Origin: Candidatus Uhrbacteria bacterium
Lineage (GTDB): Bacteria > Patescibacteriota > Patescibacteriia > GWA2-47-26
Reading direction: 5' to 3'
Length of the DNA: 64,000 nucleotides
Assembly: GCA_016187515.1 (NCBI GenBank)
Contig: JACPJN010000007.1
Location: 68,046 to 132,045 of the forward strand
Part shown: positions 1 through 51,040 of the stretch, in pieces
Layout of the letters: each line of letters opens with the position of its first letter
How positions within the stretch are numbered: the stretch's first letter is position 1
Made by a program: the position numbers and the translations under genes
The notes under the pieces: generated by a model
Told to the model about the DNA's origin: nothing
What the model saw: the letters and a program-made list of their open reading frames with translations, nothing else
The model's database searches: none

Positions 1-508
1 TGGTCACAATCAGGCCATCCTTACTCACAACAAATCCGCTCCCGCCGCCGACTTGTTGTTTTTTGGGCGGGCCTGGTGGTTGCTGCGGTGCCGGCTCCTG
101 CGGGATTTCAATCTCAAATCCAAATTGGCGAAACAGATCTTCGGGAAATGGTGAGGTCACACTGCGCTGCGCTACTTCTTTACTAATTACAATAGATACC
201 ACGGCGGGCGAGACCCGCCTGACCACCTCAACTGTAGAATCACTCTCTTGTCCCCCTCCCCTAACCCCTCCCACCAAGGGAGGGGAATTCCCTTTTGCTT
301 CCTCCCCCTTGATGGGGGAGGATTGAGGAGGGGGTGCGGCACGCGGCACGATCCATTGTAACGATGGCGGAAGTGACGCCAGCAACCTCTGCCCGATATT
401 ACCCGCGGCAACCTGGGAGGCCACAATACCGCCGGTTACTCCGGCAACGCTCCCCACCAAAAAACTGATGGTAATCGAGGCCAGAATTGTTTTGCGAAAA
501 TCATTCAT
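1..508 (-). CDS. HtrA/DegP-family trypsin-like serine protease, N-terminal part (gene continues beyond window start)
   Basis: Manual translation from ATG 508-506 gives MNDFRKTILASITISFLVGSVAGV (TM anchor), then VVRRVSPAVVSIVISKE and GGGSGFVVSKDGLIVT, a typical HtrA core. Absent from the ORF track because there is no in-window stop. Carries the in-frame family-1 repeat at 250-336. Confidence 0.6.
   Translation of the reverse strand, partial: MNDFRKTILASITISFLVGSVAGVTGGIVASQVAAGNIGQRLLASLPPSLQWIVPRAAPPPQSSPIKGEEAKGNSPPLVGGVRGGGQESDSTVEVVRRVSPAVVSIVISKEVAQRSVTSPFPEDLFRQFGFEIEIPQEPAPQQPPGPPKKQQVGGGSGFVVSKDGLIVT
250..336. repeat. Family-1 G/C-rich double-hairpin element (CCCCTCCC/GGGAGGGG stems, loops ACCA and TTGAT), in frame inside htrA
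   Basis: cccctccc..aagggagggg and cctccccc ttgat gggggagg hairpins. Same architecture as 2210-2298. Confidence 0.8.
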
Positions 509-10320: not shown

Positions 10321-10405
10321 GGAGTAAATCAAGCGAGACAAGCAAGGCAAGTAAATTAAGTACTGGACTTGCCTGATTTACCTGATTCACTTGATTTACT
10401 GACTT
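10321..10405. repeat. Family-2 palindromic word-repeat (GTAAATCAAG / CTTGATTTAC words)
   Basis: gagtaaatcaagcgagacaagcaaggcaagtaaattaag ... cctgatttacctgattcacttgatttac. Confidence 0.8.
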
Positions 10406-27342: not shown

Positions 27343-27353
27343 AAAAACAACCT

Positions 27354-27387
27354 AACAAAATAAGGTCCGGCCGGACCTTATTTTGTT
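27354..27387. repeat. Perfect 34-bp palindrome aacaaaataaggtccgg|ccggaccttattttgtt (bidirectional terminator-like), copy 1
   Basis: Identical copy at 28094-28127. Confidence 0.85.
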
Positions 27388-27480
27388 ATACACAGTTTTG
27401 ACTTATTTTAGACAATTTTATACTTTAGACTATCGACTCCTTTCAATCACGGCGTCCTCCACTCCCTAATCACACTCCTT

Positions 27481-27500: not shown

Positions 27501-28103
27501 ATGTCCGGCGCACCTCCTACACAATCCGCACAATCAAAAGAGCGGCTCGCTGATGTGCGGGATTATCTTCATGGTCTTGCGGAATGGGCGGAGTGGGCAA
27601 GCTCGGGTAAGGCCTGGATGAGCATCGCAGAGTATCAGGATTGGAAACGCCGCGAGATCATGAGAGAGAAAAAAGAAATGCTCTATGAACTAAAGCGTCG
27701 TAAATGGATTGAAACTAAAACCATCGGTAAGCGACTGGTGGGACGGCTCACCGAAGCCGGATGGCAGATGGCGCTGCGAAATCGGATACGGAACGAGGAC
27801 AAAAAATGTACCAGCGGTAACTGTTTTATAATTTTTGATATTCCCGAATCACAACGGTATATACGAAAACTGTTAAGACAGTTCATCAAAGAATGCGGCT
27901 TCAAGCGATTACAACATAGTGTATGGATTACTGACAAAGATGTGGCAAAACCTCTCCTACTCCTTCTTCAACGCCGCAAACTCAATCGCTGGGTCCAGAT
28001 AATCCAGGGTCACGTACTTACCTCTTCCACAATCGACACTATCCGAGCTATAAGGACCACTGCAAATACGAATACTTCTCATTTATATCATCCAACAAAA
28101 TAA
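27501..28103 (+). CDS. PaaX-like protein: N-terminal winged-helix plus C-terminal Cas2-fold domain
   Basis: CFIIFDIPESQRYIRKLLRQFIKECGFKRLQHSVWIT matches the Cas2/PaaX_C beta1-alpha1-beta2 pattern. The stop codon lies inside the downstream palindrome. Confidence 0.55.
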   Translation: MSGAPPTQSAQSKERLADVRDYLHGLAEWAEWASSGKAWMSIAEYQDWKRREIMREKKEMLYELKRRKWIETKTIGKRLVGRLTEAGWQMALRNRIRNEDKKCTSGNCFIIFDIPESQRYIRKLLRQFIKECGFKRLQHSVWITDKDVAKPLLLLLQRRKLNRWVQIIQGHVLTSSTIDTIRAIRTTANTNTSHLYHPTK

Positions 28104-28127
28104 GGTCCGGCCGGACCTTATTTTGTT
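28094..28127. repeat. Perfect 34-bp palindrome, copy 2 (identical to 27354-27387)
   Basis: Exact match to copy 1. Confidence 0.85.
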
Positions 28128-28151
28128 GCTAACCTTACATACTAGAATACT

Positions 28152-38646: not shown

Positions 38647-39504
38647 TTATGTTACCACCTCCGCCCCGCGCTTGCGCACAATCACCGTATGCTCAAAATG
38701 CGCCGAGGGTTTGCCATCGGCCGTTACGATGGTCCAGCCGTCGGGTTGCACATTGACGCGCCAGGTTCCTAAATTTACCATCGGCTCAATCGCAATCACC
38801 ATTCCCTCTTGCAGTATGCAATCCGGAAATCCTTCCACCCAAAAATTCGGGATCTCTGGCGGTTCGTGCACGCGGTAGCCCACGCCGTGTCCGACGAGTT
38901 CGCGCACAATCCCAAACCCAAATTTCTCCACATACTTTTCAATGGCTTTGGAAATATGGCTAACGCGATGACCGGCGCGCACTTGTTTGATGCCAATCTT
39001 TAACGCGCGCCCGGTTACTTTGATCAGTTCACGCACCTTGCGATCCACGCGGCCGACCATGACTGTGCGTGCCGTATCAGTATAGAGACCCCTCCTAACC
39101 TCCCCTTGTAAAGGGGAGGAAATTGTTTCATTTCTCCCCCTCTCGGAGGGGGAGTGAGAGGGGGTCCGTAGAACCGGCCACCGCATGCCGATGTCTATTT
39201 TCACAAGATCTCCATCCTTAATTACCCGCGACGGCACCGCCGGCGCGTGCACTACTTCCTGATTTAGGCACGCGCAAATCGTCGTGGTAAACGGCGGATG
39301 ATCCGGCCGCGGCGCGTAGCCCTTAAACGCCGGCTCTCCGCCGGCCTCCCGAATCATCCGCTCCGCCGCCACATCAAGTTCTTCGGTCGTTACTCCCGGC
39401 TTTACCATTTTACAAAGTCGCTCCAAAATCTTCGCCAAGCGCTTTCCGCCTTGGCGAATCAACTCCAGCTCCTTGGGGTTCTTTATAGTTGCTCCGCGTT
39501 CCAT
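38647..39504 (-). CDS. map: Type I methionine aminopeptidase with an in-frame repeat-encoded insertion of about 32 aa
   Basis: VVHAPAVPSRVIKDGDLVKIDIGM [insertion] GLYTDTARTVMVG ... HGVGYRVHEPPEIPNF ... IEPMV. Confidence 0.9.
   Translation of the reverse strand: MERGATIKNPKELELIRQGGKRLAKILERLCKMVKPGVTTEELDVAAERMIREAGGEPAFKGYAPRPDHPPFTTTICACLNQEVVHAPAVPSRVIKDGDLVKIDIGMRWPVLRTPSHSPSERGRNETISSPLQGEVRRGLYTDTARTVMVGRVDRKVRELIKVTGRALKIGIKQVRAGHRVSHISKAIEKYVEKFGFGIVRELVGHGVGYRVHEPPEIPNFWVEGFPDCILQEGMVIAIEPMVNLGTWRVNVQPDGWTIVTADGKPSAHFEHTVIVRKRGAEVVT
39085..39168. repeat. Family-1 element (cctcccctt gtaa aaggggagg / ctccccctc tc gagggggag), in frame inside map
   Basis: Seen in the sequence. Confidence 0.85.
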
Positions 39505-40796: not shown

Positions 40797-40874
40797 TTGA
40801 GTTATTAAGTTAAGGGTTATTAAGTTATTGAAATCACTACTTAATAACTTACTAACTCAATAACCTAATAACTC
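40797..40874. repeat. Family-3 palindromic word-repeat
   Basis: gattgagttattaagttaagggttattaagttattg ... cttaataacttactaactcaataacctaataact. Confidence 0.8.
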
Positions 40875-41676
40875 CAAATCCGGCCAAGGTTCCCAGCACA
40901 ATTGAAGGCAGCGCCGGCAAGGGGCGGCGATGACCCAACTGGAACAAGAGATCCGTGCCTAAAAGACCGAGCAGTGACCCGGCCGCGGCGCCGACGCCAA
41001 ACCAAAATCCTTCCCGCGCCGCGGCGGCCACAAATACCGCGGGGAGCGCCAGGTCTCCGGTTCCCAGAAAGAAAAAACCCTCGCCCGGGGTAACCGCGCG
41101 CAGCTTTTTAAAAAACCATCTTGGACGCTCGGGAAGGATCAGCGCGAAAATCACTCCCTTATCAAGCAGACCCTTAAACATGGTTACCATGTGGTGGGTT
41201 CCATAAACCGCGATCACATCATAGAGACCCAGAATAATCAGCACCACTGCCATTGATTCCCAAGCAATCACGCTTCCCAACGAGGCCGCGATACCGGCAA
41301 TCCCCCCGAGCATAATCACATTCTGCGCGATAATCAGAGGAAACAAGTAGCGCAGGGCAATCAGCCCCAGGGCTAAAAATAACGCCTCCTGCGGAAGATA
41401 CAGCTCCAAAAGCGCCCAAAGACCAATCAGAATCGACAAGCCAAAAATCGCTTCAAATACGACTCGGCGCCGGAGCTTGCGGATCAGAAAAAAAAGCACT
41501 GCCGTGGATAATAAAAAAGAGAAAATCAGCCGCGGCGCGGATAATTCCAGCGTTGTTCCGGAACCGACCAGGATATCGGCGCTCCTTAAGCGCGCGGCGG
41601 CCGATAAAACCAGCGCCTCGGTTGCCGCCAGCAGAAGCACGGTTTGTAAGATAAGAAAAAGCTGCTTTTTGGACAT
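40852..41676 (-). CDS. Presenilin / signal-peptide-peptidase-like intramembrane aspartyl protease homolog (A22-like)
   Basis: Polytopic membrane protein with ordered motifs LGLYDVIAVYG (YD), FLGTGDLALP (GxGD) and LPALPSI (PAL). Confidence 0.55.
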   Translation of the reverse strand: MSKKQLFLILQTVLLLAATEALVLSAAARLRSADILVGSGTTLELSAPRLIFSFLLSTAVLFFLIRKLRRRVVFEAIFGLSILIGLWALLELYLPQEALFLALGLIALRYLFPLIIAQNVIMLGGIAGIAASLGSVIAWESMAVVLIILGLYDVIAVYGTHHMVTMFKGLLDKGVIFALILPERPRWFFKKLRAVTPGEGFFFLGTGDLALPAVFVAAAAREGFWFGVGAAAGSLLGLLGTDLLFQLGHRRPLPALPSIVLGTLAGFGVIRLLS

Positions 41677-42036: not shown

Positions 42037-43317
42037 TTAGGTTTCATACTCATGCATAGTCAGCTGCGCTTCAATCTGCGTAAGGGTCTCAATCACCACC
42101 GAGACCACGATGAGCACGCTGGTTCCGCCAATCGCGAGCGCCTGTAATCCGGTCAGCCGCTGCATGGCTAAAGGAAGTACCGCGATGACTGCCAGAAATA
42201 AGGCGCCCACGAGGATCACGCGCGAGGTGACGTATTGAAGATAAGCCGCGGTGGGCTTTCCCGGACGAATCCCGGGGACAAAGCCGCCTTGTTTTTGAAG
42301 ATTTTCGGCAATCTGACCCGGATGAAAGACCACGGCCGTATAGAAGTACGTAAAAATAAACACCAAAATAAAGTAGAGTATTCCATATACTAAATTATTT
42401 TGAAAAAAATTGACTACCCATTGCGCGAGGCGGACGACTGTGAGATTGCTGGCCTGCAGGAAAAACTGGGCAATCATTGGCGGAAAAAGCACGATGGAGA
42501 TCGCGAAGATAATCGGGATAACGCCGGCCATATTCACCTTCAGCGGCAGGTGCGTGTCCACTCCGCCATACATTTTCATGCCGCGCACGCGCCGAGCGTA
42601 GGAAACCGGGATATTGCGCTGCGCTTGAGTGATGAGCACCACGCCCACCACCGTCGTAAGCGAAAGGGCGGCAAACAGCGCGAAATTGAGCGCTTGGGTA
42701 GGATCAAAACTCACCAGCACCTGCTGCGCCGCGGTCGGCAGACCGGCGATAATGCCGGCAAAGATCAAGAGTGAGATTCCATTGCCAACCTTGCGTTCCG
42801 TGATCAACTCTCCAATCCACATCAAAAACATGGTTCCGGCCGTAAGCGTCAGGATGGTAATGATATAGGCCTGGGGAGTGAGAATTCCAATAATCTGAAT
42901 CGGCGACTGGCGCAGCAGAGTAATCAGTCCAAACCCCTGGAGAGCCGCCAGCGGAACCGCGGCGTAGCGGGTCCATTGGTTGATTTTCTGGCGACCCGCC
43001 TCGCCTTCTTTCTGAAGCGCTTCCAGCTGGGGAACGACCATGGCGAGCAGCTGAAAGATAATCGAGGAAGTAATGTAGGGCGCCACCCCCAGAGCCACTA
43101 CTGAAAAACTCTCCATGGTCCCGCCGGAAAAGACATTCAAGAGTCCTAAAATCGCGTTGCTTCGAAAAAACGCCTGCAGATTCTCGGTATTCACGCCGGG
43201 AATGGGAATGTGCGCGGCTAACCGAAAAATAAAAAGCATCGCCACCACGTACAGGATACTACGGCGCAAATCCTTAAGACGCCAGATTCGGATGATCGTG
43301 CTCAAGATGCGATTCAT
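42037..43317 (-). CDS. secY: Preprotein translocase SecY
   Basis: Start trimmed to ATG 43317 (MNRILSTIIRIW). The track ORF's first 34 aa are read-through into the family-2 repeat. Confidence 0.9.
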   Translation of the reverse strand: MNRILSTIIRIWRLKDLRRSILYVVAMLFIFRLAAHIPIPGVNTENLQAFFRSNAILGLLNVFSGGTMESFSVVALGVAPYITSSIIFQLLAMVVPQLEALQKEGEAGRQKINQWTRYAAVPLAALQGFGLITLLRQSPIQIIGILTPQAYIITILTLTAGTMFLMWIGELITERKVGNGISLLIFAGIIAGLPTAAQQVLVSFDPTQALNFALFAALSLTTVVGVVLITQAQRNIPVSYARRVRGMKMYGGVDTHLPLKVNMAGVIPIIFAISIVLFPPMIAQFFLQASNLTVVRLAQWVVNFFQNNLVYGILYFILVFIFTYFYTAVVFHPGQIAENLQKQGGFVPGIRPGKPTAAYLQYVTSRVILVGALFLAVIAVLPLAMQRLTGLQALAIGGTSVLIVVSVVIETLTQIEAQLTMHEYET

Positions 43318-43326
43318 AGTTGCGTT

Positions 43327-43407
43327 GAGTAAATCAGGTAAATCAAGCGAGACAAGTGAATCAAGTGTTTGACTGGCCTGATTTACTTGATTCACTTGAT
43401 TTACTCT
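43327..43407. repeat. Family-2 palindromic word-repeat between rplO and secY
   Basis: gagtaaatcaggtaaatcaagcgagacaagtgaatcaagtgtttgactggcctgatttacttgattcacttgatttac. Confidence 0.8.
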
Positions 43408-43843
43408 CAACAGAGCCACCGGCCTGCTCTATTTTAGCACGCGCGGACTTAGAAAGCGAACAACCCTTAACCGTTAGGGCCTTTGTCAGCGTACCCTCTC
43501 CCAGAATTTTAATCGGCGCTCGTAGATTCTGTACCAAATCAAACTTTACTAAAAGTTCCGGCGTAATTGACGTGCCGGCCGCGAAACGCTCATCAAGCAC
43601 TCCGACATTCACCACCGCGGGTCTTCGATGAATGGAAGTAAAGCCGCGCCCCTTGGGGATTCTTTGCATAATCCGCTTCAGTCCGATGCGCTTAAGTCCA
43701 CGGCGTCCGCCTGATCGCGCGCGCTGACCCTTAGTTCCCTTTCCCGCGGTAGTCCCTCGCCCGGAACCGGCGCCGCGACCAATTCGTCTGACTCTGGTGC
43801 GCGAGCCGGAAGCGGGTTTTAGATTGGAAAGCGTGAATGTCAT
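43361..43843 (-). CDS. rplO: 50S ribosomal protein L15; last about 13 aa encoded by the repeat
   Basis: MTFTLSNLKPASGSRTRVRRIGRGAGSGRGTTAGKGTKGQ. Confidence 0.9.
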   Translation of the reverse strand: MTFTLSNLKPASGSRTRVRRIGRGAGSGRGTTAGKGTKGQRARSGGRRGLKRIGLKRIMQRIPKGRGFTSIHRRPAVVNVGVLDERFAAGTSITPELLVKFDLVQNLRAPIKILGEGTLTKALTVKGCSLSKSARAKIEQAGGSVESKSSESSKSGQSNT

Positions 43844-48497: not shown

Positions 48498-48560
48498 GGT
48501 AAATCAGGCGAGGCAGGTGAATCAAGCTCTTGATTTACTTGATTTACTTGATTTACTTGC
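48498..48560. repeat. Family-2 palindromic word-repeat
   Basis: gggtaaatcaggcgaggcaggtgaatcaagctcttgatttacttgatttacttgatttac. Confidence 0.8.
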
Positions 48561-50050: not shown

Positions 50051-50128
50051 GGTAAATCAAGTAAATCAGGCGAGGCAAGTGAATCAAGCGCTTGATTTAC
50101 CTGATTTACTTGCTTCACTTGATTTACC
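50051..50128. repeat. Family-2 palindromic word-repeat
   Basis: ggtaaatcaagtaaatcaggcgaggcaagtgaatcaagcgcttgatttacctgatttacttgcttcacttgatttac. Confidence 0.8.
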
Positions 50129-50954: not shown

Positions 50955-50958
50955 ATAT

Positions 50959-51040
50959 TGAGTCATCAGTCATCAGTTCACGGTTCACAGTATTGTTGGA
51001 CTCAATGCTGTTGACTGTGAACTGACGTCTGTGAACTATT
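50959..51040. repeat. Family-4 palindromic word-repeat
   Basis: tgagtcatcagtcatcagttcacggttcacagtattgttggactcaatgctgttgactgtgaactgacgtctgtgaact. Confidence 0.8.

Follow-up and report, generated by a model that had tools for sequence, protein, structure and literature searches.

Palindromic repeats in operons and the rplO–secY element

Operon MITEs, among them the Correia/NEMIS elements of Neisseria and the ERIC/IRU elements of enterobacteria, are short palindromes residing in transcribed spacers, and the stems of Correia elements are substrates of RNase III (PMC10969869). In the Rickettsia palindromic elements (RPEs), a palindromic repeat adds residues to an essential protein (PMC10969869). 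Contiguous heptamer repeats of the STRR type, found in heterocystous cyanobacteria and Beggiatoaceae, are of unknown function and consist of tandem 7-nt units in non-coding DNA, near or overlapping start codons (bioRxiv 10.1101/2022.06.06.494920). The RAYT-associated REP/BIME sequences of Gammaproteobacteria are intergenic palindromes at gene 3' ends in operons, where the individual REPs measure 20-40 nt, carry a conserved 5' tetranucleotide and often occur as inverted pairs. Liang, Rudd and Deutscher (Mol Cell, 2015) are said to have found that a REP lying no more than about 15 nt from a stop codon affects translation of the upstream gene.

The element considered here is an imperfect hairpin on the minus strand at 43327-43406 of a 64,000-nt stretch of DNA (the window) from a Candidatus Uhrbacteria bacterium, where it lies between rplO and secY. 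The ribosomal-protein gene clusters of the window (str, S10 and spc) are likewise on the minus strand. The arms of the element are arrays of 9-nt units (Table 1), the 5' arm being made up of GTAAATCAA, GTGAATCAA and GCGAGACAA and the 3' arm of the complementary units. Read on the minus strand, the junction runs GGC TCT GTT GAG AGT AAA TCA AGT GAA TCA AGT AAA TCA GGC CAG TCA AAC ACT TGA ttcacttgtctcgcttgatttacctgatttactcaacgcaact ATG AAT CGC. The mRNA-sense RNA of the element was predicted to fold at -36.1 kcal/mol (z -6.83), a stability matched by none of 200 shuffled sequences, and the antisense strand at -35.7 kcal/mol. Terminal inverted repeats are present in the sense that the element forms an imperfect palindrome over its full length, with ends GAGTAAATCA and TGATTTACTC. 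The right end of the palindrome reads TGATTTACTCAAC (reverse complement GTTGAGTAAATCA) and the left end GTTGAG-AG-TAAATCA; the CTCAAC of the right end is complementary to the native rplO codons GTT GAG, a match that would not be expected from simple insertion.

Table 1. Positions of the rplO–secY element, the adjoining genes and the other repeat copies in the window
Feature	Positions	Strand	Remarks
Family-2 element, 5' arm	within 43327..43406	-	GAGTAAATCA AGTGAATCA AGTAAATCAGG
Family-2 element, loop region	within 43327..43406	-	CCAGTCAAAC
Family-2 element, 3' arm	within 43327..43406	-	ACTTGATTCAC TTGTCTCGC TTGATTTAC CTGATTTACTC
rplO (L15)	43361..43843	-	160 aa; ORF and NCBI annotation (P0001)
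Element-encoded L15 codons	43364..43405	-	14 codons, SKSSESSKSGQSNT; span 5' arm, loop and start of 3' arm
rplO stop in use	43361..43363	-	TGA in first 3'-arm unit (ACT TGA TTC)
Extra AG	43404..43405	-	between GAG (43406-43408) and first TAA of the element (43401-43403)
A/C-rich stretch	43318..43326	-	AACGCAACT; from stem base to secY ATG
secY	42037..43317	-	426 aa; canonical start ATG 43315-43317 (MNRILST...)
5' extension of secY, judged spurious	43318..43419	-	34 codons, from GTG 43417-43419; unconserved
Family-2 copy	10323..10400	-	upstream 239-aa gene stops at first-unit TAA (10396-10398)
Family-2 copy upstream of lon	33139..33216	-	inverted relative to the other five; 94% complementary
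Stop of 97-aa gene upstream of the lon copy	33212..33214	-	first-unit TAA
Family-2 copy between rpsC and rplP	48499..48559	-	rpsC stop is first-unit TAA
Family-2 copy between rplB and rpsS	50052..50128	-	rplB stop is first-unit TAA; 16-aa S19 extension from 3' arm, judged spurious
Family-2 copy in rpsL 5' UTR	60371..60457	-	just 3' of promoter-like TTGACT-17-TAGGAT; 16-aa S12 extension, judged spurious
CCCCTCCC family	39061-39195; 36229-36342; 2212-2298; 253-339		map; recO; cobA-like; intergenic, respectively

Among known systems, the hairpins of the window come closest to operon MITEs. They resemble MITEs, a class of elements under about 500 bp, in being non-coding, multi-copy imperfect palindromes of about 60-150 nt that are variably present between close relatives, and in being able to alter gene ends and to form long RNA stems. 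They differ from MITEs in having arms built from tandem 7-9-nt units, an architecture found in at least eight families of unrelated sequence within one 20-kb operon. Moreover, they possess no terminal inverted repeats distinct from the body of the element, and neither a TA nor any other target-site duplication was seen at five junctions at which the filled sites were compared with the empty sites of a related genome (L003, see below), these lineages having diverged. No transposase and no IS parent was found among 10 ORFs scanned against Pfam. The parallel with REP/BIME sequences is the location of a palindrome at gene 3' ends in an operon, but the present elements are single hairpins of 60-90 nt with periodic arms; no GTAG-type head was found on the Family-2 copies, and no RAYT gene among the 10 ORFs scanned. 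With the heptamer repeats the elements share tandem 7-nt units in non-coding DNA near or overlapping start codons. The heptamer repeats are, however, contiguous on the same strand, the preprint mentions no inverted-pair hairpin, and the supply of a stop codon or a protein tail is unreported for them. In the literature searched, no description was found, for Patescibacteria, of elements of this kind or of a tandem-unit architecture across many unrelated families in a single operon.

For the coding contribution, the nearest parallel is with the RPEs. As there, a palindromic repeat adds residues to an essential protein, but Family 2 does so through a C-terminal read-through caused by a +2 offset and at gene termini only, rather than as an internal, in-frame and conserved peptide, and the host phylum is unrelated. 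Behaviour that does match the RPEs was observed for a separate family of the window, a GC-rich three-way element (CCCCTCCC...GGGAGGGG, -50 to -72 kcal/mol) which lies within, and in frame with, the coding sequences of map, recO and a cobA-like gene. The RecO protein of Parcubacteria GW2011_GWA2_47_26 (L002) is without the 22-aa segment of this family. At the corresponding place in MAP, L003 and L002 have inserts that are related yet different.

Reading frames in the Family-2 copies and the tail of L15

Six copies of Family 2, 61-87 nt long, were present in the window, and one further copy was found upstream of rpsL in L090, a syntenic contig from Hainich groundwater. Since the 9-nt unit is a multiple of three, every reading frame is uniform along an arm, and in all six copies the three frames offered 0-1, 11-17 and 31-48 open codons, respectively. 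The frame that stops first ends at the TAA or TGA of the first unit, while the third is open across the whole element. This fully open frame was used by none of the five genes abutting a copy from upstream; four of them (the 239-aa and 97-aa genes, rpsC and rplB) use the 0-codon frame, and rplO uses the frame of 14 codons. The identity of the stop codon followed the repeat family, with TAA at four Family-2 junctions and TAG at three junctions occupied by a 7-nt-unit family (rpsS, rplD and rplW), at which L003 has TAA, as has L002 where the alignment is clean. This suggests that the first unit of the element supplies or replaces the stop codon of the upstream gene.

A SecY-based scan of species-representative genomes yielded 80 Patescibacteria loci, among which the best SecY relatives were L002 (81% identity) and Uhrbacteria RIFCSPHIGHO2_02_FULL_46_47 (L003, 80%). 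Both are without the element at orthologous junctions, so that it is present or absent between related genomes. Filled and empty sites were compared by direct reading, pairwise gap placement by MAFFT being poor. The empty site of L003 reads GGT AAA GTT GAG TAA aatgt ATG AAT CGC, with L15 ending ...GGKVE and a spacer of 5 nt, and the filled site of the window reads GTT GAG AG TAA ATC ... CTCAACGCAACT ATG AAT CGC. Neither the right end of the palindrome, which is complementary to the left, nor the empty site (GTT GAG TAA) contains the extra AG. These two nucleotides shift the first-unit TAA out of frame, and L15 consequently reads on for 14 codons, ending ...AGGSVE followed by SKSSESSKSGQSNT at its first in-frame stop, a TGA in the 3' arm that lies 43 nt ahead of the secY ATG. 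The allele with the two additional nucleotides is GAGAGTAAATC and the form without AG is GAGTAAATC; the comparisons point to an L15 that, without AG, would stop at the TAA as ...GGSVE, like its relatives. The sequence-only reading had let rplO continue about 13 residues into the element with its stop inside the repeat; the location of the stop was correct, and the tail proved to be 14 residues long.

None of the 20 L15 homologues retrieved (57-79% identity) carried the tail, and 14 of them had lengths of 145-149 aa and ended a few residues from the conserved GG motif. The absence of the tail from the homologues, together with the 5-nt empty site in L003, argues that the tail is derived and that the element was added, specifically in this lineage, to a spacer that had been tiny. 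Because there is no in-frame stop ahead of the TGA, the tail must be translated, barring something unusual, and it appears to be real as far as DNA can show; the NCBI record likewise carries L15 in its 160-aa form. The C-termini of L15 are variable across Patescibacteria, with tails of up to approximately 32 aa. In one of the related loci (L025:2560-2612) the C-terminus is derived from a tandem repeat, ...LVTRNSGTRNSGTRNSGTRNSK*, and the same holds for the L15 of P0038, ...SVEGVQGVKGVKG (GVQGVKGVKG), which indicates that repeat-derived tails recur in the phylum. Such variable and repeat-encoded ends make a short hydrophilic tail on L15 plausible and probably tolerated, and we infer that it is both made and tolerated.

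The probable explanation is that a Family-2 repeat, without coding capacity of its own, came to occupy the rplO–secY spacer. The genes upstream of four other copies terminate at the first-unit TAA and gain no tail. At rplO, the extra AG moves the gene into the second frame, and ribosomes would translate 14 codons and terminate at the 3'-arm TGA, a passage that would mean unwinding the 5' arm and the loop. A universal ribosomal protein would in this way have gained a repeat-encoded tail of 14 residues via an offset of 2 nt, a clear natural case of an essential protein altered by a repeat that looks selfish.

The extra AG stands in a GAGAG context within a repeated element, an error-prone place for assemblers and polishers, and the tail could in principle stem from a 2-nt assembly or sequencing error, in which case the TAA would be the true end of L15 (...GGSVE). 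Two Logan contigs that were assembled independently from separate runs (SRR12113428; SRR12113418), which were reached through the 460-aa form of SecY in the Logan gene calls, showed 0 mismatches to the window over 4775 and 2272 nt, respectively. The matched stretch of both covers GAGAG, the element and the L15 tail, and the SRR12113428 contig recurs in 13 samples. As two runs are identical at the junction, the tail is not an artefact of one assembly; it is very unlikely that the MAG assembly alone contains an error here, and there is only a slim chance that the tail reflects an error at all. The exact L15 (with two alternative starts) and the 426-aa SecY gave no record in the contig index. A metagenome pattern for the rplO junction that allowed 0-4 nt between GAG and TAA returned 0 matches, so no AG-less allele was found.

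When a generic three-unit Family-2 pattern was searched in metagenomes, the hairpin arrangement was found in 1 of the 120 matches analysed, which was L090, and the remaining matches had no inverted array within 120 nt downstream. The L090 copy is 84% identical to a non-orthologous copy of the window and 79% identical to the orthologous one, with coding DNA being approximately 70% identical. The closer match to the non-orthologous copy would fit family turnover or gene conversion.

N-terminal extensions of SecY and the ribosomal proteins

The longest secY ORF encodes 460 aa compared to the canonical 426 aa. Its GTG start is located 12 nt upstream of the element, within rplO, and the extension reads through both arms and overlaps rplO by 59 nt. 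The element can thus be read as coding from both sides, as the sequence-only reading had proposed, with the rplO stop in the 3' arm and the secY ORF spanning both arms. That reading had also given the extension its correct length of about 34 aa, but had placed its beginning in the other arm of the repeat instead of inside rplO. SecY begins MNR... in both L002 and L003, and the alignment with a further relative (L004) opens only at residue 8. In L003, the secY ATG lies 5 nt past the rplO stop, which leaves no space for an extension.

A recurrence of the same pattern had been claimed for rpsS, rplD, rplX and rpsL. The ORFs of rpsS and rpsL do open with repeat-derived peptides, since the extensions of S19 (from TTG 50087) and S12 (from TTG 60407), 16 aa each, are in-frame TTG ATT (C/T)AC readings of a Family-2 3' arm. 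The claim failed for the other two genes, where the 36-aa extension of rplX (L24) derives from a different, 7-nt-unit family and the 14-aa extension of rplD (L4) from yet another repeat family. In L090, rpsL opens MPTIHQLIK straight after the Family-2 copy. Overall, the upstream frame was examined for 22 genes, most of them preceded by an element, and 8 of the 22 had an in-frame alternative start there.

The lengths annotated by NCBI are 426 aa for SecY, 111 aa for S19, 138 aa for S12, 209 aa for L4, 276 aa for L2, 103 aa for L24 and 67 aa for L28. Extended forms were found only in the automatic Logan calls, in which SecY has 460 aa and L2 has 280 aa. The 4-aa pseudo-extension of L2 (MTQY) opens at an ATG in the 3' end of a 7-nt-unit element (ATGACTCAATAT ATG, 50955-50966). 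A further hairpin of tandem TTAATTAG-type 8-mer units is found at 61795-61871, ahead of rpmB on the plus strand (61883-62086), and yields an apparently spurious 21-aa extension of the L28 ORF, MAIRQQTIELTNQLINQLTNF.

Judged from sequence comparison, the N-terminal extensions of SecY, S19, S12, L24, L4 and L2 are artefacts of ORF finding, which would arise from TTG, GTG or ATG codons in stop-free 3'-arm frames upstream of conserved canonical starts. The opposite view, that SecY, S19 and S12 really carry repeat-encoded leader peptides, can draw on the openness of the extension frames, on the GTG and TTG codons that they contain and on the choice of the 460-aa SecY by the Logan gene caller. It is nevertheless very improbable, considering that the relatives are without extensions, that the L003 spacer measures only 5 nt, and that translation of SecY would have to begin 59 nt inside rplO. 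In addition, the candidate upstream starts are buried in a stem of approximately -36 kcal/mol, and the canonical starts are those of the NCBI annotation. About two-thirds of the frames would be open by chance, and the occurrence of an extension in three of the six copies matches this expectation.

The artefactual reading implies that gene callers favouring the longest ORF give wrong N-termini for SecY, S19, S12, L24, L4 and L2 in this genome. The annotation hazard foreseen by the sequence-only reading is therefore a practical one, given that public automatic calls already hold a 460-aa SecY and a 280-aa L2 where NCBI has 426 aa and 276 aa. Its suggestion that some terminal tails might be real was borne out, at the level of DNA, by the C-terminus of L15, while the N-terminal cases appear artefactual.

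Origin and possible roles of the hairpins

Nearly every spacer between 40789 and 60460 is filled by a hairpin of 60-125 nt with arms of tandem 7-, 8- or 9-nt units, and the hairpins across these ribosomal-protein clusters fall into at least eight sequence-unrelated families. An ungapped hairpin scan gave 21 long hairpins for the window, or 3.3 per 10 kb, and none for a shuffled version of it; among the 80 related loci, the median density was 0.5 per 10 kb. Similarly hairpin-rich lineages were few (L080, L046, L045, L063 and L025) and each has its own unit sequences; the hairpin families of the window had no significant match in the 80 loci. Most spacers of the window measure 64-95 nt, while those of L003 are mostly 1-28 nt. 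The total minimum free energy of the 116 nt after each stop did not discriminate junctions from coding controls, and an explicit stem finder was used in its place. At 20 junctions, the base of the stem was no more than 18 nt away from the stop codon. A reduced genome of the Candidate Phyla Radiation with almost no Shine-Dalgarno sequences tolerates an 80-nt hairpin in nearly every ribosomal-protein spacer, which raises the question of translational coupling across such spacers and of why hairpins saturate these operons.

At one of these spacers (40852-40883), the end of an SPP-family membrane protein (...VIRLLS*) overlaps the 5' arm of an 8-nt-unit element. This end aligns with the native C-termini of the relatives (VKLFS in L002 and VMLVK in L004), which indicates that the stem takes in native coding sequence. 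In the tuf-rpsJ spacer of L003 (L003:842-875), TAGTTCACAGACGACGG was found right after the tuf stop, without a hairpin; it matches the 7-nt-unit family of the window over 13 nt at the family's 5' end and may be a remnant, a seed or a chance match.

The rplO–secY element is probably a dispersed, lineage-specific palindrome of the MITE/REP kind located in a formerly tiny spacer, with the coding overlap as a by-product and the N-terminal extensions as artefacts. We infer that it arrived by insertion and is essentially selfish, its mobility being deduced from the similarity of the copies and the empty site. A palindrome may be tolerated in tight operons, as it folds back on itself and thereby keeps the stop and the start close in space, and selection may filter the coding overlap to frames that stop at once. 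A search of the whole window against Rfam gave 0 matches at gathering score. Intrinsic termination, which calls for a GC-rich stem with a T-run after it, was also considered: the site was unflagged on the minus strand, and the region as a whole had 32 terminator-like sites where 26 +/- 5 are expected. The terminator reading was rejected on architecture, the 3' arm being followed by CAACGCAACTATG with no terminator signature.

Alternatively, the hairpins could be intercistronic RNA modules maintained by selection, and not selfish DNA. A stop codon at the 5' base of the stem, a fold that keeps stop and start near each other and an unstructured A/C-rich stretch before the ATG would then serve translational coupling, the stem might double as an RNase III or stability site, and the L15 tail would be a tolerated slip. 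A Shine-Dalgarno-like motif was found at only 3 of 34 starts, many of which are preceded by AAT, ATT or TAT, and translation initiation in this organism appears to be mostly independent of Shine-Dalgarno pairing. The stop codon itself is paired in the predicted stem at 11 of 20 junctions, all seven Family-2 copies (six in the window and that of L090) have their 3' end 5-11 nt ahead of an ATG, and five of the six window copies have an A/C-rich stretch ahead of it. Unrelated hairpins in L002 (L002:9880-10003) and L004 (L004:4440-4530) likewise pair the rplO stop region, ATCCCGTTAGAAG, with CTTCTAACGGGATG, the bases directly ahead of, and partly including, the secY ATG. Taken together, these features make a role in coupling, processing or stability conceivable. 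Other Patescibacteria also have analogous tandem-unit hairpins with different unit sequences, and between species Family 2 retains about 80% identity, compared to about 70% for the coding DNA of the same species.

A selected RNA module is nonetheless unlikely. The closest relatives mostly have much shorter spacers and no such hairpins, which argues that the module is not required, and one Family-2 copy is inverted relative to the five others. Across 21 spacers, the antisense folds contained 79 G.U pairs compared to 39 in the mRNA-sense folds and were the more stable in 14 of the 21. This asymmetry holds for Family-2 copies of both orientations and has the opposite sign to that expected of hairpins acting at the mRNA level. 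No covariation was seen in alignments of the paralogous copies, which are too similar to be informative. Finally, adjacency to stops and starts is to be expected in any case when approximately 80 nt are dropped into a 5-nt spacer.

More speculatively, and with lower probability still, the elements might be mobile 'intercistronic cassettes' of Patescibacteria initiating without Shine-Dalgarno pairing, which bring their own stop codon, a self-folding stem and an unstructured stretch before the next start. If this were the case, the coupling of termination and reinitiation would survive, or even depend on, insertion, and the L15 tail would be the cost of a built-in stop knocked out of frame.

The tandem 7-9-nt units of the arms also bring to mind a DNA-level or guide-RNA function, in the form of iteron-like protein-binding arrays or relatives of TIGR (tandem interspaced guide RNA) arrays. 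TIGR-Tas systems are present in Candidate Phyla Radiation bacteria, and some of them have stem-loop arrays (PMC12045711). [quoted passage not shown] Such roles are hence very doubtful, and the TIGR-array reading in particular was rejected on the architecture of dispersed single hairpins with 9-nt periodicity.

A sigma-70-like site, TTGACT-17-TAGGAT (60471-60499, minus strand), is located directly upstream of the Family-2 copy ahead of rpsL, and the same arrangement is found in L090. Transcription from this site would place the stem-loop of the copy close to the start of the rpsL mRNA. Elsewhere in the window, two nearly identical perfect 36-nt palindromes, AACAAAATAAGGTCCGGCCGGACCTTATTTTGTT (27353-27388 and 28093-28128), flank a PaaX_M-like ORF (27501-28103), the last 11 nt of which are covered by the second palindrome.
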